DNA of 11,547 bases from a virus (lineage: Duplodnaviria > Heunggongvirae > Uroviricota > Caudoviricetes). The DNA lies in IMG/VR virus record IMGVR_UViG_2529292734_000012. One strand, written 5' to 3'. Shown here piece by piece: positions 1,497-11,547 of the stretch. The translations under genes were made by a program, and so were the position numbers. A model generated the notes under the pieces. It did not search any database. It saw only the letters and a program-made list of their open reading frames with translations, and was not told the origin of the DNA. The stretch's first letter is position 1; each line of letters opens with the position of its first letter.

Positions 1497-1573
1497 CGGC
1501 ACGTAGCGCAGTCTGGTAGCGCACCGTCATGGGGTGTCGGGGGTCGGAGGTTCAAATCCTCTCGTGCCGACCA
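1497..1573 (+). tRNA. proL: tRNA-Pro (anticodon GGG), 77 nt with encoded CCA
   Basis: Sequence CGGCACGTAGCGCAG...GGTTCAAATCCTCTCGTGCCGACCA has acceptor-stem complementarity (CGGCACG/CGTGCCG), a T-loop GGTTCAAATCC and an anticodon loop AUGGGGU. It matches the E. coli proL tRNA as I recall it. Confidence 0.9.
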
Positions 1574-1648: not shown

Positions 1649-1694
1649 CAGTCGCCGGATTGAATCGGTAAGATAGGGTTATAACCGGATTTTT

Positions 1695-1766
1695 TAGCTA
1701 CACGTTTAGCTATACGGTCCAGCGTGTAGCTAAAGCCGTATAGCTACGACCAGGCATATAGCTACC
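1695..1766. promoter_or_regulatory. Array of TAGCTA(C/T)ACG-type direct and inverted repeats upstream of the integrase gene (candidate integrase arm sites or int operator)
   Basis: tagctacacg (1695-1704), tagctatacg (1707-1716), cgtgtagcta (1723-1732, inverted), cgtatagcta (1737-1746, inverted), tagctacg (1741-1748), tagctacc (1759-1766). Confidence 0.5.
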
Positions 1767-1781
1767 GATGAGTAAAAAAAC

Positions 1782-3023
1782 ATGGCACGAAAAACCACCC
1801 CACTAACTATTACGGAGATCAAAAACGCACGACCAGGGGAAAAGGAATATACCCTGCAGGATGGCGGAGGATTATTTCTTCTGGTGAAGCCCTCCGGATC
1901 AAAAATCTGGCGTTTTACGTACTACCGCCCGGCAGATAAAAAACGGACTATTATCAGCCTTGGATCGCTAAATGATGTTTCCCTGTCTGATGCCAGAGAG
2001 CGACGGAATGAATACAGGTCACTCATAGCAAAGGGAACTGACCCACAGGACTACGAACGCCGGAAACGTGAAGCAGAGAGCAGGAAAAAGGGCAACACGT
2101 TCGAAAAAGTTGCCTTGGACTGGTACGAGATGAAAAAAGGCCAGAATCTGGCTTACAACACGATTAAGGATATCTGGCGATCCCTGGAAAAATACGTATT
2201 CCCGTACATCGGAAACACGCCAATAGATACCCTCACCGCTCGCCGCTTTGTTGAGATACTCACACCCATTAAAGCACGCGGCAACCTGGAAACTCTGAAA
2301 CGCGTTTTACAACGCATCAATGAAGTGATGGATTTTGCTGCCAACAGTGGGCTGATTGACATCAACACCGCCGCGAACGTCCGCAAGGCATTCCCTTCCC
2401 CCACTAAAAAGCATATGCCAACCATCCGACCGGAACAGCTACCGCAGCTAATGCACGATTTATCGGTCGCCAGCATAGAACGGCAAACCAGATTGCTAAT
2501 CGAGTGGCAACTGCTGACCGTAGCACGCCCAGCCGAAGCAGCCGCCGCACGCTGGGAAGAAATAGATCTCGATGCCGAAACATGGACGATTCCAGCCGGA
2601 CGCATGAAGATGCGCCGTGACCATGTGATCCCTCTTTGCGGTCAGGCGATGGCTGTACTGGAAACAATGAAGCCAATCAGCGCACACAGGGAACATGTTT
2701 TTCCCAGCCTTAAAAATCCAATACTGCCAATGAGCAGCCAGACCGCTAACGCTGCATTGCGCCGGATGGGATACGCTGGTGTGCTGGTGTCTCACGGATT
2801 ACGCGCCATATTCAGTACAGCAGCGAACGAGGAAGGATTCGAGCCGGACGTAATCGAGGCCGCACTCGCACACGTGGACACGAACGAGGTAAGGCGAGCA
2901 TATAACCGAAGTAACTACCTGGAAAAACGTGTAGTACTTATGCGCTGGTGGGGTGAATTTGTGGAAGCCGCAGCAACCGGAGTGACCATAGCCAGTGGTA
3001 AAAGGGGTATCCGTGCGGTGTAA
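1782..3023 (+). CDS. int: Tyrosine site-specific integrase, P4-like family (413 aa)
   Basis: Located about 200 bp downstream of a tRNA gene. N-terminal arm-binding-like region (GLFLLVKPSGSKIWRFTYY). C-terminal catalytic motifs HGLRAIFST (H-x-x-R) and RAYNRSNY (catalytic Tyr region). Confidence 0.9.
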   Translation: MARKTTPLTITEIKNARPGEKEYTLQDGGGLFLLVKPSGSKIWRFTYYRPADKKRTIISLGSLNDVSLSDARERRNEYRSLIAKGTDPQDYERRKREAESRKKGNTFEKVALDWYEMKKGQNLAYNTIKDIWRSLEKYVFPYIGNTPIDTLTARRFVEILTPIKARGNLETLKRVLQRINEVMDFAANSGLIDINTAANVRKAFPSPTKKHMPTIRPEQLPQLMHDLSVASIERQTRLLIEWQLLTVARPAEAAAARWEEIDLDAETWTIPAGRMKMRRDHVIPLCGQAMAVLETMKPISAHREHVFPSLKNPILPMSSQTANAALRRMGYAGVLVSHGLRAIFSTAANEEGFEPDVIEAALAHVDTNEVRRAYNRSNYLEKRVVLMRWWGEFVEAAATGVTIASGKRGIRAV

Positions 3024-3548: not shown

Positions 3549-3755
3549 ATGGAAGTAATCAGAAAAATTCTTACCCGTCAGGAAGTAAAAAATATTCTGC
3601 GCATCAAGGCAGACAGTTCGCTACAGGACATGATCAACGCCGGAAAATTCCCGAAAGGCTTCAAAATCGGTCTGCGCCGTGTTGGCTGGTATGAAGATGA
3701 GGTGCAGGCCTGGTTGAAAGAACGCGAGGAAGAAGCGCGCGGAACGGCTGCGTAA
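3549..3755 (+). CDS. alpA: AlpA-family phage transcriptional regulator / excisionase-like HTH protein (68 aa)
   Basis: Short MerR-like HTH protein (LTRQEVKNILRIKADSSLQDMINAGKFPKGFKIGLRRVGWYEDEVQAWL) with the conserved Trp-containing C-terminus typical of AlpA/Vis proteins. GAGGT RBS. Position just after the integrase as in P4-like and PICI elements. Confidence 0.75.
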   Translation: MEVIRKILTRQEVKNILRIKADSSLQDMINAGKFPKGFKIGLRRVGWYEDEVQAWLKEREEEARGTAA

Positions 3756-3903
3756 TGGTGTGAGGTGTAACGCAATGAACATAACAAAAAGCGCCCCGTT
3801 GCCGGAGCGCCCTTGTGAACAATTAACCTGCTGCGAAAAAAATGGATCAGTGCAGGGGAATTATATCAACTGTGTGAAGAAGCGCCACTATTGCCGGATA
3901 ACA

Positions 3904-3934
3904 GGCAAAGAAAAGGCCACCAGTCACGGTGGCC
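3904..3934 (-). terminator. Rho-independent terminator for the minus-strand small-gene pair
   Basis: Perfect inverted repeat GGCCACC-agtcac-GGTGGCC (3915-3934); on the minus strand it is followed by TTTTCTTTG. Confidence 0.6.
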
Positions 3935-4013
3935 CTGCGACACAAATTTCGCGTTATCCCCAACGCATGAGCATCGCCAACAATGCCACATTTGCGGCTG
4001 GTGGGCAATGCAA

Positions 4014-4202
4014 TCAGTCTGGTTCAGTTCGTTGCCATACCTGCAATGAGCGCTTTTCCCTGTACTCTTTAAGAAATTGCTCAAGGGCAAAAGCACATGG
4101 CGCGAATCTTTCTGATTCATGCTCTATCTTTCTGCGCCGTCTTTTCCGTGCCGGTGATAATGTTTTGGTCAATTCTTTATCGGTCATTGTGTTGTCCTGC
4201 AT
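4014..4202 (-). CDS. Hypothetical small basic protein (62 aa; likely start at the second Met, 4187, giving 57 aa)
   Basis: AGGA lies 8 nt upstream of the ATG at 4187. KRRRRK basic cluster. Sits downstream of the RHH-like gene and upstream of the minus-strand terminator. No family recognised. Confidence 0.45.
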   Translation of the reverse strand: MQDNTMTDKELTKTLSPARKRRRRKIEHESERFAPCAFALEQFLKEYREKRSLQVWQRTEPD

Positions 4203-4244
4203 AGCAATGCGCCGTAGTTACTCACACCACGGCGCTGGTGATGG

Positions 4245-4424
4245 TTACTCCTGCTCTTTGGCCTTGCGGCGCTGGCGGCGTTTGATCTCGCCTTGCATTG
4301 ACGCAATGATGAATTGTGATGTGCTTTCGCCTGATTCTTTCACTGATTCCATGGCGTTTACTATTTCGTGTGGTACACGAGCCTTTAGAGCTTGTGATTT
4401 TGCGTTTGTTGTACCCGTTGCCAT
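4245..4424 (-). CDS. Small ribbon-helix-helix (Arc/CopG-like) DNA-binding protein, candidate repressor (59 aa)
   Basis: GAGGAA RBS 6 nt upstream of the ATG at 4424. Sequence MATGTTNAKSQALKARVPHEIVNAMESVKESGESTSQFIIASMQ fits a beta-strand/helix/helix RHH pattern. Divergent from the + strand operon promoter. Confidence 0.55.
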   Translation of the reverse strand: MATGTTNAKSQALKARVPHEIVNAMESVKESGESTSQFIIASMQGEIKRRQRRKAKEQE

Positions 4425-4485
4425 TTCTATTCCTCTGTTGGATTGGTGGGGGACAGTATACACAGAAAAAGCACAAATAAAACCC

Positions 4486-4526
4486 TTGACGTGGGCCACA
4501 CCTAAAGCATATAGTGGGCCACACCT
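4486..4526 (+). promoter_or_regulatory. Strong sigma70-like promoter for the rightward replication operon, with 13-bp direct-repeat operators overlapping -35 and -10
   Basis: TTGACG (4486-4491), 18-bp spacer, TATAGT (4510-4515). GTGGGCCACACCT at 4491-4503 and again at 4514-4526. Confidence 0.6.
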
Positions 4527-4552
4527 TGAGATTATCAAGGTGCATAGATGCA

Positions 4553-4587
4553 AAGCCCCGCAAGTGTCGTTACCACTCGCAGGGCTT
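4553..4587 (+). ncRNA. Stable stem-loop in the leader of the rightward operon (candidate regulatory or processed RNA element)
   Basis: 14-bp stem AAGCCCCGCAAGTG / CACTCGCAGGGCTT with two mismatches and a 7-nt loop; no following U-run. Lies about 30 nt downstream of the predicted transcription start. Confidence 0.3.
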
Positions 4588-4623
4588 CTAACCACCAACG
4601 ATAGCGAAAGTATCGAGGTAGCT

Positions 4624-4830
4624 ATGTTAAATCATACCACACACCCGCAAGGGCGGGACTCGTACAACCTGAATAAATACATCTGGCGTTTTATCGCCCT
4701 GAGCACGGCACAACCGCGTGTGATTACCATTGAGGCCACCAGCGAACAGGAAGCGCGTCAGCAATCTCCTGATGGCTGCGTGATGGTATTCGCTGCCCGT
4801 ATTCGCCAGGGGGTAGGCCATGTGCAATAA
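4624..4830 (+). CDS. Hypothetical protein (68 aa), first ORF of the rightward operon
   Basis: ATG at 4624 preceded by GAGGT. It is the C-terminal portion of an otherwise implausible 356-aa frame. Overlaps the next ORF start by 11 nt. Confidence 0.4.
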   Translation: MLNHTTHPQGRDSYNLNKYIWRFIALSTAQPRVITIEATSEQEARQQSPDGCVMVFAARIRQGVGHVQ

Positions 4831-5044
4831 AACCACACCGGACGCAGCAGCCGCCGCGCTCACTACGCTGATGCACGCGCTTATTGATATTTCTGTTATT
4901 GCTGACAGGGCGCATAAACACGCAGCCAGAGAATCAGAATGCATCTTCCATTATTTAGCATTTGTGCAGCTAAAAGCCGATCAGGCACTGGATAAGGCCG
5001 GAAAAATTATCATGGCTAATGTGCAGGAGGTGCACCATGCATAA
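4820..5044 (+). CDS. Hypothetical protein (74 aa)
   Basis: GGGGGTAGG RBS. Overlaps the previous ORF by 11 nt; stop overlaps the next start (ATGCATAA). Confidence 0.4.
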   Translation: MCNKTTPDAAAAALTTLMHALIDISVIADRAHKHAARESECIFHYLAFVQLKADQALDKAGKIIMANVQEVHHA

Positions 5045-5856: not shown

Positions 5857-6156
5857 ATGAAACTTAAATATTCTGGCTTAACTGCCAGTGGCAACACTCA
5901 CCCTAAATTTACGCGCGGCGATATTTACCGCGACCAGTACGGCGGCACGGTAATGATTAAGGGCGTGGAAGAACGGCGCGTAACCTACCGCCGTGAAGGT
6001 TACGAATATGATTGCGTGATGCCTGTTTATCAGTTCCGGCGTGATTTTTCTCTGGTACAGACCGCGCCGCATAACGTGTCCACCAGCAACGCCAGGGCAC
6101 GGGCAAACATCCAGAAGCTGAAAACCATGATTAACGGATTCAGGGGTAAAAAATGA
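5857..6156 (+). CDS. Hypothetical protein (99 aa), translationally coupled to the replication ATPase
   Basis: GGAGA RBS. Stop overlaps the start of the downstream gene (ATGA at 6153-6156). Confidence 0.5.
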   Translation: MKLKYSGLTASGNTHPKFTRGDIYRDQYGGTVMIKGVEERRVTYRREGYEYDCVMPVYQFRRDFSLVQTAPHNVSTSNARARANIQKLKTMINGFRGKK

Positions 6157-7559
6157 AACTGGCACCGAACGTAAAACTGTTACCGAAAGATAAACACACT
6201 GAGGCGGTTATTTTTGCGGGTGATAATGCTCACTCCTTTGCAGAACATTACATGATTGCACAGGCCAAAAAAGCAGGCGATCCCATCCCTCCGGTTTACC
6301 TGGGCCGTTATCAGTTAAGCGAACTGGACAATTTACAGATTGTTGATGAAGGACGATACAGAGCAAAGGTCATACGCGCCGGAAACCTGGACGATATGCA
6401 GATGCTGACCATTGCCACCAAACTGGCGATCGCAGGTGTCCGGGAAGCGCGGTTACTTTCAGAGAATTTCGAACTACTGGAGGACTGGAGCGAGCAACTA
6501 CCCCGACTTAAAGAAACCTGGGAACGCGGGGAAAGTCTGGTCATGAATGGCGGAAAGCGAAAAATCACACTTCCCATCTCATGGGGTTCTGAGGGATTCG
6601 ACGCGCAGCAAAGCTACGTAATTAAGGGGCTTATTCCGGCTGAATCATTATGCAGCACCTACGGGGCCAGCGGTTCTTATAAATCGTTCCTGGCTATTTC
6701 CTGGTCGTGTCATGTTGCCACAGGTATAGCATGGGGAGGCCGCAGGGTAAGTAAGGGCGCGGTTATCTATATCGCTGGCGAAGGCAGTATGGGCGTAAAA
6801 CGCCGCGTTAAGGCGTGGGAGATAACCCACGACAAGGTGGTTACGGATTTGTGCATCGTTAACGCGCCTGTCTTCCCTGCATCGCCTGACTATGTGGAGC
6901 AGGTTATCAGGACCGCCGGATTAGTGCAAGACAGAACGGGCGAAAGGGTGCGGATGATTGTCATTGACACACTGGCCCGTTGCTTTGGTGGTCATGATGA
7001 AAATGACTCCCGCGACATGGGGGCGTTTATCCAGGGGTGTGACGCGATAAAGCAGGCCACGGGGGCCACGGTTCTGGTTGTGCATCATTCCGGCAAGGAT
7101 GAGACGAAAGGGGCGCGGGGTTCCAGTGCATTCCGTGCGGCGCTTGATGCTGAGTTCCGAATCAGTCGGGAACATTCAGAGGCTACGGCGCTGGTTGCAG
7201 CATGTACGAAGATGAAGGACGCGGAGGAGCCAAAAGAAAGCGCCTACGACCTTAAGAGCGTGGAGGTATTTACGGATCCTGAGGGTGAAGAAATCGTGTC
7301 CATGGTGGTGATTGACGTTCCCCGCGCCCCTGCTGAACTGGAGCGCATAGAGGAGGCCGGGAACAAGACGGAAAATCACACGGCTTTATGGGGTTGTATC
7401 CGGTCACGTATACAGCATGGTGATAAATGCACGATCCCGCTGCTACGTGATGACATGAAAAAGCTGGGATATGACACAAAACACCTTAAACGATGGTTAG
7501 CCAAACTGGAAAAAGACGGCGTGATTTGCGTCGATGGGGATGATGTTCACCCACTGTAA
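6153..7559 (+). CDS. Replication initiator/helicase-like P-loop ATPase (RepA/AAA_25-like RecA-fold), 468 aa
   Basis: Deviant Walker A GASGSYKS, Walker B-like MIVIDTLARCF, and VLVVHHSGKDETKGARGSSAF typical of RepA/AAA_25-type ATPases. Followed immediately by an iteron array. Confidence 0.75.
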   Translation: MKLAPNVKLLPKDKHTEAVIFAGDNAHSFAEHYMIAQAKKAGDPIPPVYLGRYQLSELDNLQIVDEGRYRAKVIRAGNLDDMQMLTIATKLAIAGVREARLLSENFELLEDWSEQLPRLKETWERGESLVMNGGKRKITLPISWGSEGFDAQQSYVIKGLIPAESLCSTYGASGSYKSFLAISWSCHVATGIAWGGRRVSKGAVIYIAGEGSMGVKRRVKAWEITHDKVVTDLCIVNAPVFPASPDYVEQVIRTAGLVQDRTGERVRMIVIDTLARCFGGHDENDSRDMGAFIQGCDAIKQATGATVLVVHHSGKDETKGARGSSAFRAALDAEFRISREHSEATALVAACTKMKDAEEPKESAYDLKSVEVFTDPEGEEIVSMVVIDVPRAPAELERIEEAGNKTENHTALWGCIRSRIQHGDKCTIPLLRDDMKKLGYDTKHLKRWLAKLEKDGVICVDGDDVHPL

Positions 7560-7761: not shown

Positions 7762-8013
7762 ATGACCAGAAAAACCAGAGATAAGACAGCACCAAAATAT
7801 CGCGCATTAGACATGACAGAGCACGCCTTAAAGGTGGCAATCAGAACGATAGACCGCCACGCCGGAGAAGGATACGCGAAAGCACATCCCGAACTGATAA
7901 GCGCATTCATGACCACGACGGCGGCAAATTTTGCCACGCTGACAGAGCGGGAGATTGCCGAAGCGGAACAGGTAACAACAATCAACGTTAAAACCGGAGA
8001 GGTGGAATCATGA
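7762..8013 (+). CDS. Hypothetical protein (83 aa)
   Basis: ATG at 7762 preceded by AGGTGGG. The longer frame from 7630 would run through the iterons and is rejected. Stop overlaps the SSB start (ATGA). Confidence 0.45.
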   Translation: MTRKTRDKTAPKYRALDMTEHALKVAIRTIDRHAGEGYAKAHPELISAFMTTTAANFATLTEREIAEAEQVTTINVKTGEVES

Positions 8014-8432
8014 CAGCACAGATAGCGGCTTACGGGCGGCTGGTGGCTGACCCGCAGTTAAAGACCACTAGCAAAGGGACACAAATGGCGATGGCGAGTA
8101 TGGCGGTTCCCCTGCCGTGCAGCCAGGCAGATGACGGAACGGCGACGATGTGGTTATCTGTCCTGGCGTTTGGCAGACAGGCCGACGCACTGGCAAAACA
8201 CCACAAAGGCGAACTGGTGAGCGTGGCGGGTAACATGCAGGTGAGCCAGTGGACAGGCCAGAACGGGGAAACGCGGCAGGGCTGGCAGGTTATTGCAGAC
8301 AGCGTAATCAGTGCGCGAACGGCGCGACCGGGCGGCAAAAAAGGTCAACAGGGCCAGGCTACTGACGCGCTGAACAGGGCAAAACAACAGGCGGGAAATG
8401 ATGATCCGTACGGGGATAACATACCGTTTTAA
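8010..8432 (+). CDS. ssb: Single-stranded DNA-binding protein (SSB-like, 140 aa)
   Basis: OB-fold-like N-terminal region and an acidic C-terminal tail ending DDPYGDNIPF, resembling the SSB DDDIPF tail. GGAGAGGTGG RBS. Confidence 0.7.
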   Translation: MTAQIAAYGRLVADPQLKTTSKGTQMAMASMAVPLPCSQADDGTATMWLSVLAFGRQADALAKHHKGELVSVAGNMQVSQWTGQNGETRQGWQVIADSVISARTARPGGKKGQQGQATDALNRAKQQAGNDDPYGDNIPF

Positions 8433-8445
8433 GCAACGAGTAACA

Positions 8446-8470
8446 GAGGCCGGAGCAATCCGGCTTTTAT
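8446..8470 (+). terminator. Rho-independent terminator ending the replication module
   Basis: GCCGGA-gcaa-TCCGGC hairpin followed by TTTTAT. Confidence 0.6.
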
Positions 8471-8493
8471 CAGTTGAGTCCGTCACACTACGC

Positions 8494-8519
8494 AAAAAAA
8501 AGGCCGGAATATTCCGACC
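8494..8519 (-). terminator. Rho-independent terminator on the minus strand (faces the + terminator)
   Basis: The minus strand reads GGTCGGA-ATAT-TCCGGCC followed by TTTTTTTT. Confidence 0.55.
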
Positions 8520-8704
8520 CTTTCATCACCAAAGAGAATAATTTATGTCTTTGAACTTGTAACGCTGTACAGAATGACACGTAACGCCGGATAAATAAAC
8601 GAAGATTGAAACTTTGCACACTATTGCATAGCAATGCATAAAGATGCCAAACAAGGCAGATGATAAAATTAACGCGACACTTTTACTAAGTATTAAGAGG
8701 TTAT

Positions 8705-9745
8705 ATGAGTGATTTATATTCGCCAGCCATGTTAATACAGGTTGTTAATGCCGAAGATATTCAATGGCAGATTAATTCTTTATTTATAAACCTGTTTTTT
8801 AAGCGAGTCGTTACATTTGAGACGCGGGATATTGCGCTTGATATTATTGACGATCCAGACATCCCGATGGCTGCATTTTGTTCCCCTATGGTTGGTAGTA
8901 AAGTCTCACGCGATGAAGGCTACGAATCAAAAGTAATTCGCCCTGGCTATATGAAGCCAAAAAGTAGTATCGACCCAAATAAAATAGCCGTTCGTCAACC
9001 AGGCGTATCACCTGAACAATTCAATGCATATTCATCACGCAGTTTCAAAATAAAGCGAGCGTTAGTAAGACAAGCGCAGGCAATTCGTGCGCGTATTGAG
9101 TGGCTTGCTGTTCAGGCGGTTACAACGGGGAAAAATATCATTGAAGGCGATGGAATTGAACGTTATGAACTGGACTGGAATATAAAACCACAAAATATTA
9201 TCACGCAGTCCGGCGGCACGGAGTGGAGCGGTAGAGATTTATCAACATTTGATCCAAACGATGACATCGAAGAGTACGCAGAAATCAGCGAAGGTACTAC
9301 AAATATCATCGTAATGGGCCGCAACGTATGGAAAAAATACCGCGCCTTTAAAGCAGTAAAAGATTGCCTTGATACTCGACGGGGATCTAATTCCGTTCTT
9401 GAAACGGCCCTGAAAAATCTTGGGGATTCTGTAAGCTTCAAGGGTTACGTTGGCGATGTTGCTATTGTGGTATATAGCGGACGTTATACCGACGAGGACG
9501 GCAAAGAAAAATATTTCCTTGATCCTGATTTGATGGTGCTTGGCAACACATCATTACAGGGCATCGTTGCCTACGGTGGCATTCAGGATCCTGAGTTAAT
9601 CAGAATGGGGCTGACTAAAGCCGAACTTGCGCCGAAAAATTACATCGTACCAGGTGATCCGGCTATTGAATATGTGCAGACGCACAGCGCACCGCAACCA
9701 ATACCGGCCCGCATCAATCGTTTTGTTACCGTTCGCATTGGTTAA
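8705..9745 (+). CDS. Phage major capsid protein, lambda gpE family (346 aa)
   Basis: Long collinear similarity to lambda gpE as I recall it: ITQSGGTEWS, FKAVK..LDTRRGSNS.LETA, GDVAIVVYSG, MVLGNT, YGGIQD. Similar length (346 vs 341 aa). AAGAGG RBS. Confidence 0.9.
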   Translation: MSDLYSPAMLIQVVNAEDIQWQINSLFINLFFKRVVTFETRDIALDIIDDPDIPMAAFCSPMVGSKVSRDEGYESKVIRPGYMKPKSSIDPNKIAVRQPGVSPEQFNAYSSRSFKIKRALVRQAQAIRARIEWLAVQAVTTGKNIIEGDGIERYELDWNIKPQNIITQSGGTEWSGRDLSTFDPNDDIEEYAEISEGTTNIIVMGRNVWKKYRAFKAVKDCLDTRRGSNSVLETALKNLGDSVSFKGYVGDVAIVVYSGRYTDEDGKEKYFLDPDLMVLGNTSLQGIVAYGGIQDPELIRMGLTKAELAPKNYIVPGDPAIEYVQTHSAPQPIPARINRFVTVRIG

Positions 9746-9754
9746 GGGGGAGCA

Positions 9755-10096
9755 ATGGCTACTCATTACACTGAACTCATGGCTGGCACTGAAGCACTGG
9801 TTACTACGTTGGGGATATTTTCAGCTAATAAAGGGGTAATTCCTGCATTTACGCCACTGATGCAAGAAGATGCAACTGGTGCACTGGTGGTATGGGATGG
9901 AACGAGCGCAGGCAAAGCTGTTTATGTTTCCGCTGTACAAATCGATACAGCGACAAAAACGCAGGCTCAGGTTTATAAAACCGGCGTCTTAAATGTTGAT
10001 GCTCTGAACTGGCCTGAGTCTGTAACACAACTATCAGCAAAAGTTGCTGCGTTTGTTGGCTCAGGTATTTCTGTTCAGCCGCTGGCACGTGTGTGA
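9755..10096 (+). CDS. Head decoration protein, lambda gpD family (113 aa)
   Basis: AFTPLMQEDATGALVVWDGTSAGKAV...YKTGVLNVDALNWPE...AFVGSGISV parallels lambda gpD ([26 protein letters not shown]...YKSGTFRYEDVLWPE...AFAGTAISIV). Confidence 0.85.
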   Translation: MATHYTELMAGTEALVTTLGIFSANKGVIPAFTPLMQEDATGALVVWDGTSAGKAVYVSAVQIDTATKTQAQVYKTGVLNVDALNWPESVTQLSAKVAAFVGSGISVQPLARV

Positions 10097-10105
10097 GGTA
10101 CGAGA

Positions 10106-10423
10106 ATGATTGAAAGAGATAGTCAGCTACGAGAGCTATTAGATATCGATGACAAAATGAGTTTAAGCGAGCGCCTTGTTGATATGGATCAGGTAGTGGA
10201 GCTTACAACCCTTAGCCGTCGCACATTGCTAAACCTTGAGGCTCGCGGAGAGTTCCCCGAACGCGTACAGGTTACGAAAGGGCGCAAGGCATGGTATTTA
10301 AGCGAGGTTGTTGCGTGGATTAACAACATTCCGCGCGCATCAAATTATTGCCTTGTTCCCACCCCGAAAAACCTGATGCGGCGTTATGCCTCAAGATTGA
10401 ACGCGCCAGGCGTAATGCCCTGA
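10106..10423 (+). CDS. HTH DNA-binding protein (AlpA/MerR-like HTH_17 type), 105 aa
   Basis: VVELTTLSRRTLLNLEARGEFPERVQVTKGRKAWYLSEVVAWI resembles the AlpA/excisionase-type HTH. GAGGT RBS. Lies between the decoration gene and cos. Confidence 0.55.
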   Translation: MIERDSQLRELLDIDDKMSLSERLVDMDQVVELTTLSRRTLLNLEARGEFPERVQVTKGRKAWYLSEVVAWINNIPRASNYCLVPTPKNLMRRYASRLNAPGVMP

Positions 10424-10489
10424 AAGGACGCAATAAGTTGATTGGTTGATGAAATTAGGGCCCGTTCTGGCTGGCGGGTCCTTTCCGGC

Positions 10490-10545
10490 GATCCGGCAGG
10501 CTACGGGGCGGCGACCTTGCGGTTTTTCGCTATTTATGAGCTTTT
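10490..10545. other. Lambda-type cos site (cosN cohesive-end sequence GGGCGGCGACCT at 10506-10517, plus start of cosB)
   Basis: ctACGGGGCGGCGACCTtGCGGtTTTTCGCTATTTATGAg matches the lambda left-end/cosN sequence GGGCGGCGACCTCGCGGGTTTTCGCTATTTATGAAAA (from memory) with a few substitutions. Sits about 130 bp upstream of a Nu1-like gene, as in lambda. Confidence 0.7.
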
Positions 10546-10548
10546 TCA

Positions 10549-10577
10549 GGGTGGTGGTGGTGGTTTTGTTGTTTGTT
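10549..10577. repeat. Short simple-sequence repeat (GGT)5 followed by a T/G-rich (TTG)n-like tract inside the cosB-equivalent region
   Basis: GGGTGGTGGTGGTGGTTTTGTTGTTTGTT. Confidence 0.6.
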
Positions 10578-10649
10578 CTATCTCCATGAATGAAAAGGGA
10601 AGATAACACCAACACACCAACCTGAAACCTTAACTAAGTGGGGATATTG

Positions 10650-11192
10650 ATGAAATCGCACCTGATGAACAAAAAAACTATGGCGCAAAGCTGCCGCGTA
10701 AGTGCGACAGCGTTCGACAAGTGGGGAGTGACTCCCGTTGAGCGTAAAGGCCGTGAGGCGTTTTATGATGTTGCTAGCGTGATAGACAATAGGGTTAACA
10801 ATGCAATTAACCAACTTACAAACGACAAAGGCGAGATTGATGATGATGAACTTTTACGCGTAAGAATCAGATTAATGACGGCCCAGGCGGAAGCGCAGGA
10901 ACTTAAAAACGAGCGCGAACGCGGCGAGGTGATTGATACAAAGTTTTGCATCTACGCGATTTCAAAGCTGGCACAACAAATTTCTTCAATCATGGACAGC
11001 CTCCCGCTCACAATGCAAAGGCGCTTTCCCGATATAAGGCCGTATATGCTGGATGAACTAAAAAGGGAAATAGTCAAAGCATGTAACGCATGTGCAAGAC
11101 TTGACGAAAACCTGCCACAGATACTGGCTGATTACCTGATGGAAACTACCGGAAACGTGCCTGAGAAGTTGCTACAGAACAAAGGCGAGTAA
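10650..11192 (+). CDS. Terminase small subunit, lambda Nu1-like (start uncertain: 10638 GTG, 10650 ATG or 10665 ATG)
   Basis: LMTAQAEAQELKNERERGEVIDTKFCIYAISKLAQQISSIMDSLPLTMQRRFPDI parallels lambda Nu1 LTRAQADAQELKNARDSAEVVETAFCTFVLSRIAGEIASILDGLPLSVQRRFPEL. The N-terminal DNA-binding region is more divergent. Confidence 0.8.
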   Translation: MKSHLMNKKTMAQSCRVSATAFDKWGVTPVERKGREAFYDVASVIDNRVNNAINQLTNDKGEIDDDELLRVRIRLMTAQAEAQELKNERERGEVIDTKFCIYAISKLAQQISSIMDSLPLTMQRRFPDIRPYMLDELKREIVKACNACARLDENLPQILADYLMETTGNVPEKLLQNKGE

Positions 11193-11265
11193 CCGCCGCC
11201 CCGTAACGGGCCATAATTCCAGGAAGGACCCGACGACACCAGGCTATCAGAACGATGAGGGCACA

Positions 11266-11547
11266 ATGACTGAAGCCGAACTACTGGGATTAATCCGCCG
11301 CGTCGTCGGAATCAGCCAGCAGCATGACGAACAGGCCACACAGCCGGACAGCGTGACCGCTGAAAATTATGTGCGTGTTGTTGCTGAGGTGATGCGCCGT
11401 GATGGTATTGAGCTTAACGGCGTGGATATGCGCAACATACGAACAAGAGTCCTTGAGTTGCTGGCATACCGTCGCCGTTCTCAACAACGGAGGGAGAGCG
11501 CGAAAAATACTTACCAGTGGAAGAAGCCGGAACGGTTGCGGCGGTAG
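11266..11547 (+). CDS. Hypothetical protein (93 aa), Arg-rich C-terminus; stop codon is the last three bases of the window
   Basis: ATG preceded by GAGGG. Occupies the position where lambda has gene A but shows no resemblance to gpA. Confidence 0.4.
   Translation: MTEAELLGLIRRVVGISQQHDEQATQPDSVTAENYVRVVAEVMRRDGIELNGVDMRNIRTRVLELLAYRRRSQQRRESAKNTYQWKKPERLRR

Follow-up and report, generated by a model that had tools for sequence, protein, structure and literature searches.

What do a lambda-type major capsid gene and a decoration gene do on a phage satellite with an incomplete head module? The window analyzed here, an 11,547-nucleotide stretch from IMG/VR virus record IMGVR_UViG_2529292734_000012, carries a Gram-negative phage-inducible chromosomal island (PICI), a known kind of Escherichia coli phage satellite of ~11.1 kb and an ordinary member of an already described family. 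Its late zone runs, in order, through the capsid gene (E_sat), the decoration gene (D_sat), a gene for an AlpA-like helix-turn-helix (HTH) protein, a lambda-type cos site, a Nu1-type small terminase (TerS) gene, and an open reading frame (ORF) of 93 amino acids (aa). The two head genes are:

8705–9745, plus strand: E_sat, satellite major capsid protein, lambda gpE homolog, 346 aa (Pfam, PDB, structure model)
9755–10096, plus strand: D_sat, satellite decoration (cement) protein, gpD/SHP homolog, 113 aa (Pfam, PDB)

E_sat is confirmed as a full-length lambda gpE-type protein and D_sat as a gpD-type protein. E_sat matches Pfam family Phage_cap_E over residues 14–343 (E = 2.7e-41; 142 bits, cut-off 22.9) and aligns end to end with the lambda gpE structure 7VI9 (E = 9e-77; residues 11–345 against 7–340) and with 3BQW (E = 2e-121). 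The latter, the top PDB match and a 2008 structural-genomics entry described as a "putative capsid protein of prophage" from E. coli CFT073, is a protein of the satellite EcCICFT073 (locus L008, 20669–21724). Sequence identity is 42.6% to lambda E and 54–55% to the EcCICFT073 capsid protein c1499. An AlphaFold model of E_sat (pLDDT 79) has the HK97 fold, with N-arm, E-loop, spine helix (residues 108–141), and P and A domains; its TM scores are 0.88 to 3BQW and 0.83–0.85 to lambda gpE. For D_sat the Pfam family is HDPD, that of lambda head decoration protein D (E = 2.6e-16; 60 bits, cut-off 29.1), and the protein also matches SHP of phage 21 (1TD0; E = 9e-17) and lambda gpD (1C5E; E = 1e-12); relative to phage D proteins, its N terminus is shorter and its C terminus longer.

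The two genes lie on the same strand, separated by nine in-frame bases that contain a Shine-Dalgarno site. On one public contig they are fused into a 463-aa E-D protein (P0002; 98% identical), at a junction equivalent to window positions 9743–9757. This fusion is consistent with loss of the stop codon and could equally be a sequencing error. A second candidate, P0064, taken for an E-D fusion in a phage-type lineage, turned out to be a D-then-E fusion in normal phage context and is irrelevant here. A sigma-70 promoter scan upstream of E_sat gave nothing convincing, with fewer sites than in shuffled sequence, which would fit an activator-dependent promoter or read-through and proves neither.

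Gene Order and Missing Head Genes

In the window, E comes before D, the reverse of the order in all phages checked: lambda, 21, N15, the myovirus vB_EcoM-569R10 (which has a lambda-type head), and the lambdoid prophage of CFT073 all run protease/scaffold, D, E, FI. Lambda, like 21 and N15, shares with the window full-length proteins of the same families and fold, cosQ, cosN, and a Nu1-type TerS, but it has D ahead of E and carries B, C, Nu3, A, W, FI, and FII. When the whole window was compared by blastx with 14 lambda proteins (Nu1 to G), homologs of E, D, and Nu1 alone were found, and none of B, C, Nu3, A, W, FI, or FII.

Could a complete capsid module begin just past the window? A near-identical island in E. 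coli GTEN_23 (L001; 99.9% identical to the window over 8500–11547) continues beyond the 93-aa ORF with 1 kb that is free of genes, followed by attR and the chromosomal gene yejO. Portal, protease, scaffold, and large terminase (TerL) genes are therefore absent downstream, and a complete capsid module there is ruled out. The earlier note on this DNA had described an element far smaller than lambda, with E and D alone between the replication module and cos, in an order inverted relative to lambda, and had proposed a look downstream for portal, protease, and TerL. The gene map bears this description out, as do the ~11.1 kb between 26-bp att repeats, the D-then-E order of the phages checked, and the end of the GTEN_23 island.

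The window also differs from capsid-forming PICIs (cf-PICIs) of the EcCIEDL933 type. These likewise carry capsid genes on an int-alpA-rep backbone shared with classical PICIs, but their set comprises coat, protease, portal, connectors, HNH, TerS, and TerL. In the window, coat, cement, and TerS alone are present; portal, protease, head-tail connectors, and TerL are not found beside its coat gene. As to the origin of the reversed order, a reversed segment order has been reported at the E_80 site (PMC10111431). Capture of the flanks of a helper-embedded satellite was considered as the source and is no more than a conjecture, since it cannot yield a full-length E at E_80.

A Satellite-Only Clade Under Purifying Selection

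E_sat and D_sat belong to an old clade of their own, found only in satellites. Satellite E proteins are 51–98% identical among themselves and 40–46% identical to every phage E compared; the phage E proteins are 54–90% identical among themselves. A global protein search with E_sat has an identity gap between 51% and 43%. All contexts examined at 51% identity or more are satellites with E then D, and all those examined at 43% or less are phages with D then E. No phage record among 50,697 phages has an E more than 60% identical to E_sat. This ceiling, together with the helpers at the same loci, whose E is ~42% identical, rules out that the pair was captured recently from a helper.

Two satellite lineages can be told apart. 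The window type (72–98% identity in E) occurs in E. coli, Kluyvera, Superficieibacter, Cedecea, Kosakonia, and Serratia, and the CFT073 type is ~54% identical to it. Identities of D follow the same pattern: E is always accompanied by D and diverges along with it, and D_sat is ~30–41% identical to the D proteins of lambda, 21, and N15. More than 4,000 full-length copies are on record, and the coat and cement cassette is detectable in 1,084 of 5,426 complete E. coli genomes, about a fifth.

Both genes are under strong purifying selection. Ratios of nonsynonymous to synonymous substitution (dN/dS) are 0.02–0.13 for E and 0.04–0.15 for D, as low as in the comparison of lambda with N15 (0.067); the data span five or more genera, and between genera the synonymous sites are saturated. 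Pseudogenes are ruled out by these values. That the pair is a decaying remainder of a captured block of helper late genes, with no present function, is therefore extremely improbable in our estimate, even though capture of helper late genes by the late zones of PICIs is documented (PMC10111431) and deletion of the counterpart genes in EcCICFT073 is silent. The thousands of intact full-length copies speak against decay, and no phage source more than 46% identical is known among those compared. An E-D pair in satellites is already in the literature, and the window as such needs nothing new. What this analysis adds is the separate clade, the constant E-D order, the purifying selection, and a link with satellites that interrupt the helper's E gene.

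The Sister Island EcCICFT073

EcCICFT073 is the only island of this group for which helper induction, packaging, and high-frequency transfer have been shown experimentally (PMC6092414; Fillol-Salom et al. 2018). Like the window, it has int, alpA, replication genes, a single-stranded DNA-binding protein (SSB) gene, E, D, cos, and a final 93-aa gene; E precedes D, cosN is identical to that of lambda, and portal, protease, and TerL are missing. It differs in belonging to another sublineage (E 54–55% and D 53% identical) and in its integration site. After D it has a 137-aa scaffold remnant where the window has an AlpA-like HTH gene, and its RppA and pair of inverted cos sites stand against a full Nu1-type TerS and a single cos in the window.

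The island's putative capsid protein c1499 and head decoration protein c1500 were recognized in that study, and deletion of either gene neither restored lambda plaques nor changed transfer, including transfer with resident prophages (PMC6092414). The DNA packaged with EcCICFT073 was all phage-sized (PMC6092414; review, PMC6893505). When late genes of the island were overexpressed singly, rppA (c1503) alone blocked lambda, and the authors think that RppA derives from TerS (PMC6739421). A literature search found no later functional work on PICI-encoded E or D; one paper postulates that such genes may modify or stabilize hijacked capsids (PMC10085698).

These experiments bear on the possibility that E_sat and D_sat act against the helper or host, by poisoning helper assembly, soaking up a helper factor, or countering a coat-sensing host defense. 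Strong conservation without a visible transfer role would suit such a function, and satellites commonly disturb helper capsid assembly (PMC6092414). However, lambda plaques were not restored by loss of c1499 or c1500, c1503 was the sole lambda inhibitor among the singly expressed late genes, and the retention of a matched D would be hard to account for. We regard an interfering or decoy role as very unlikely.

Relatives Inside Helper Phage Genes

Where else does this late module occur? An E gene 98% identical to E_sat lies, in four of the five places shown, in satellites inserted in the E gene of lambdoid prophages, at about codon 82–91. For an 81% identical variant, at least three of the four places shown are satellites in a helper E gene, the contig of the fourth being too short to tell. 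Three further relatives (L004, L005, and L009) are likewise satellites inserted in a helper E gene. The "11capE" helper-embedded PICIs of PMC10111431 resemble the window closely, with E 84–98% and D up to 96% identical, and the rest of their late module is essentially the same (AlpA-like HTH, cos, Nu1-type TerS, 93-aa ORF). They differ in lying inside helper E and in their integrase (~25% identical). The window island does not share their placement: it is chromosomal, between yejM/tRNA-Pro and yejO. The same paper reports that 21 of 29 reference Gram-negative PICIs carry a capsid gene, describes satellites inside the helper capsid gene, and proposes a back-up role.

In all of these relatives inserted in helper E, the helper's D is intact just upstream, and D_sat is nonetheless kept, which argues that helper D cannot serve an E_sat lattice. 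The window and the helper-embedded L009 share 96% identity in D, which suggests recent exchange. A satellite of Edwardsiella tarda (L016; 1–625 and 10908–11681) carries E and D, its E 58% identical, and sits in the helper's portal gene; carriage of E and D is therefore not tied to interruption of E.

Is the cassette useful only while a satellite interrupts helper E, and a useless passenger, acquired by frequent module exchange, in chromosomal islands? Most copies of the late module that we saw are in satellites lodged in helper E, the similarity of D to that of L009 suggests recent exchange, the authors of PMC10111431 proposed a back-up role, and EcCICFT073, in which the deletions had no effect, is a chromosomal island. 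On the other hand, chromosomal islands of the CFT073 lineage (at the roxA-phoQ site), of Serratia, and of Lelliottia keep E and D intact and under purifying selection, excision of the satellite restores helper E anyway, and the E. tarda satellite has the pair without breaking E. Taken together, we think that a back-up role as the whole explanation is unlikely.

Some sister satellites extend the block. In Lelliottia (L019; 9001–11752) and in a metagenome contig (L020; 3571–6300), E and D are joined by a full gpC-type S49 protease/scaffold gene (50% identical to lambda gpC), on one strand and in the exact reverse of the phage order C-D-E. In EcCICFT073 the 137-aa "hypothetical" protein after D (L008; 22084–22497) matches positions 495–567 of 583 in phrog_53 (E = 1e-8) and, by BLAST, positions 414–487 of helper gpC. 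From its sequence it appears to be a remnant of the scaffold C terminus, and by analogy with CpmB of SaPI1, which shares the C terminus of the helper scaffold, it could be a mini-scaffold. Because sister satellites add the protease/scaffold or its remnant, the E-D block can be seen as a capsid-assembly module.

Satellite-Specific Surfaces of E_sat

Alignment and the E_sat model locate stretches of E that satellites conserve and that differ from phages:

8873–8932, plus strand: codons 57–76, predicted E-loop; 75% identity between satellite lineages, 40% to phages
9110–9169, plus strand: codons 136–155, end of the spine helix and P-domain hairpin; 93% between lineages, 47% to phages
9647–9706, plus strand: codons 315–334, C-terminal P-domain strands; 85% between lineages, 43% to phages

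A fourth satellite-specific stretch is the A-domain loop 256–274, and the part of E_sat most shared with phages is the A-domain core, residues 216–255. Within the predicted E-loop, residues 61–72 form a loop of low pLDDT. In lambda, the E-loop of one subunit and the N-arm of another gain a strand from the N terminus of gpD (PMC5701804), and satellite-specific patches in the E-loop and P-domain sheet, as modeled, would fittingly accompany a failure of helper D on an E_sat lattice. At the position of lambda Trp308, the window lineage alone has tyrosine (Tyr313); the CFT073 lineage and all phages have tryptophan.

Packaging Signals and Head Size

Downstream of the pair lie the signals and the terminase subunit through which island DNA would be packaged:

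10476–10517, plus strand: cosQ (GGGTCCT, 10476–10482) and cosN GGGCGGCGACCT (10506–10517), identical to lambda in an alignment with the lambda ends
10548–10580, plus strand: island-specific cosB region replacing the lambda R sites, with GGTGG repeats and then a T-rich run
10638–11192, plus strand: Nu1-type small terminase, 184 aa (Pfam Phage_Nu1, E = 2.9e-24; phrog_57, E = 1e-52)

The bases flanking cosN are lambda-like too. The GGTGG-type cosB is common to the window and an O157:H7 island (L011), which have the same type of TerS, and a Kluyvera relative without TerS retains lambda-like R sites in cosB. TerS is 37% identical to lambda Nu1 over 179 aa; full-length homology to Nu1 by Pfam, PHROG, and identity rules out an Rpp protein, and a search of its sequence against the PDB gave no match except a chance ankyrin hit. 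We infer that the island TerS recognizes the island's own cosB and passes the DNA on to the large terminase of the helper.

Two cosN copies in inverted orientation flank rppA (WP_000565609.1) in L008 (22559–23320) and L010 (10716–11477). The orientation of rppA is opposite in CFT073 and strain AREA_499, and the segment between the inverted cos repeats might flip.

In lambda and cosmid packaging, the cos sites in a concatemer are cut only once the head is nearly full. Four copies of an 11.1-kb island come to 44.5 kb, within the lambda packaging range, so small heads are not needed to explain packaging. The near-full-head rule, the size of the island and its relatives (10.2–11.5 kb), and the phage-sized DNA of EcCICFT073 together argue for packaging of tetramers. 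The earlier note rightly held a monomer of so small an element to be unfit for a full-size head and proposed, as a plausible hypothesis, smaller shells built from a satellite-encoded variant of the capsid protein. In such a scheme E_sat, alone or mixed with helper E, would force shells of triangulation number T = 4 or T = 3 on the helper portal, holding one or two island copies and excluding the helper genome.

Single changes in lambda E, in work of Katsura from 1983, reportedly give small heads. The model puts the satellite-specific patches on the E-loop and the P-domain sheet, which by general HK97-fold topology would be inter-capsomer contacts, and island sizes are tightly grouped. Among satellites, PmCI172 has a capsid homolog and small heads, and SaPIbov5 makes small capsids with Ccm (PMC6092414; PMC6893505). 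Ccm is, like E_sat, a satellite homolog of a helper HK97-fold coat protein on a cos-packaged island. However, the two have no sequence relationship, and Ccm redirects the helper coat to small capsids, whereas the E. coli island packaged phage-sized DNA with lambda and its E and D deletions left interference and transfer unchanged. Measured by what the earlier note had set against its own proposal, particles of helper size only, the proposal fails with EcCICFT073, whose E is 54–55% identical to E_sat. Moreover, rppA alone among the singly expressed late genes blocks lambda (PMC6739421), and the window island has no scaffold-like gene. By the ratios of P2 to P4 and 80alpha to SaPI1 (~0.35), a T = 4 head would hold ~17 kb, which one island copy would underfill and two would overfill. 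We therefore judge size redirection decidedly unlikely. Of the earlier interpretation, the satellite nature, the lone E-D pair, and the inverted order stand, and the small-capsid role is not supported by the experiments on the sister island; with some other helper, E_sat may still form small shells.

A Proposed Matched Coat and Cement Pair

Which function would leave such a pair so strongly conserved? We favor, with roughly even confidence, a reading in which E_sat is a working coat protein and D_sat its matched cement, the two assembling on portal and scaffold of the helper into lambda-size heads that each take up about four copies of the island. A lambdoid helper would induce the island, and E_sat and D_sat would be made. 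E_sat, alone or beside helper E, would polymerize on the helper portal with the helper's scaffold and protease into lambda-size heads, and D_sat rather than helper D would lock the expanded lattice at its threefold sites. The island TerS would bind its own cosB and recruit the helper's large terminase, the lambda-identical cosN would be cut, about four island copies (44.5 kb) would fill each head, and helper tails would be added. The benefit would be independence from the helper E gene, which the commonest carriers of the module break. In this account D would be carried because helper D no longer fits so diverged a coat, and the deletions would have been silent because helper E and D are redundant under laboratory conditions.

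Several points weigh against this account. No particle made of satellite E is on record. The silent c1499 and c1500 deletions imply that the pair is dispensable where a helper supplies E and D. W308A makes the lambda coat protein assembly-deficient (7SJ5; PMC11674207), and it is at this assembly residue that E_sat has Tyr313. The placement of the satellite-specific patches comes from a predicted model and general HK97-fold topology. The window island is not helper-embedded, so a benefit from replacing E does not apply to it directly. Finally, compatibility with the helper portal and scaffold is assumed, with E_sat ~42% identical to helper E and helper scaffolds diverse; Nu3 of the helpers in L004 and L005, for example, is 48–57% identical to that of lambda.

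Classical PICIs steal whole heads, and capsid-forming PICIs steal tails only. A further reading would set the window halfway between them, with E_sat and D_sat forming a shell of satellite protein only on a stolen helper portal; we consider this improbable. If it were true, the E-loop and P-domain surfaces would exclude helper E and helper D, a smaller triangulation number would be possible with some natural helpers, and the islands with E-D-protease/scaffold or E-D-scaffold remnant would be further steps along the same path.

This very common gene pair is under selection as strong as in real phages, yet the sole experiments, made on one sister island with lambda-type helpers, found no role for it. 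Its role, once known, would tell to what extent classical satellites make heads of their own already, by what route capsid-forming ones might arise, and whether a satellite lodged in helper E supplies a substitute for its product.

The Island and Its Chromosomal Site

The remaining features of the window place the pair on a typical PICI backbone:

1497–1573, plus strand: tRNA-Pro(GGG), chromosomal landmark left of the island, with yejM upstream (ARAGORN, Rfam tRNA)
1691–1716, plus strand: attL, 26-bp direct repeat TTTTTAGCTACACGTTTAGCTATACG, with the matching attR ~1 kb past the window end
1782–3023, plus strand: tyrosine integrase (Pfam Arm-DNA-bind_3, Phage_int_M, Phage_integrase)
3549–3755, plus strand: AlpA-type regulator/excisionase (Pfam Phage_AlpA, E = 5.6e-9)
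6153–7559, plus strand: RepA-type replicative helicase (Pfam AAA_25, E = 3.4e-42)
8010–8432, plus strand: SSB, last gene of the replication zone (Pfam SSB, E = 4e-16)
8446–8473, plus strand: GC-rich 9-bp hairpin and U-run (RNA fold of 8430–8530, -26.5 kcal/mol, z = -2.8)
10106–10423, plus strand: second AlpA-like HTH protein (Pfam Phage_AlpA, E = 7e-8; phrog_2790, E = 8e-35)
11266–11547, plus strand: conserved 93-aa protein, last gene of the late zone (phrog_1561; 78% identical to the last gene of EcCICFT073)

The island sits in the chromosome between yejM and yejO, 118 bp downstream of tRNA-Pro, and the left end of the window is chromosomal (the 3' part of yejM and the tRNA gene). Exact copies of the att repeat number one in the window and none in 200 shuffles; in the GTEN_23 island they stand at 4934 and 16052, 11,118 bp apart. 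The repeat itself lies outside the tRNA gene. The features of a PICI are all found: an integrase at the left end, alpA, an own replication module, co-oriented genes, att repeats, a size like that of related islands (uniformly 10.2–11.5 kb), no lysis or tail genes, an incomplete head module, and cos with terS. In an Rfam scan of the window for P4-like immunity RNAs, the tRNA was the sole match.

The slot of the AAA_25 helicase holds a D5-type primase (L001; 9167–10981) in islands that are otherwise 98–100% identical. The window's exact gene combination is absent from all complete E. coli genomes searched, which marks the island as a mosaic. An AT-rich gap of 272 bp separates SSB from E_sat; the hairpin at its start is terminator-like and would part the replication zone from the E-D operon. 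The second AlpA-like HTH gene is joined to that operon by a 9-nt spacer and is kept after D in five genera, and the stop codon of the 93-aa ORF is the window end.

A zone of small ORFs lies between AlpA and the helicase. There, a 356-aa ORF (3760–4830) is probably no gene: it overlaps a YlcI/YnfO-type ORF on the minus strand (4245–4598) as well as Icd-like fragments annotated in related islands. At the right end of the late zone, relatives carry opposite-strand cargo that varies among HEPN with DUF262, Abi_C, and AF_1680 (L009, 11287–13003; L026, L029, and L030, ~12180–12940; L028, 11230–12546); the window stops before this slot. These cargo genes look like anti-phage defense genes.

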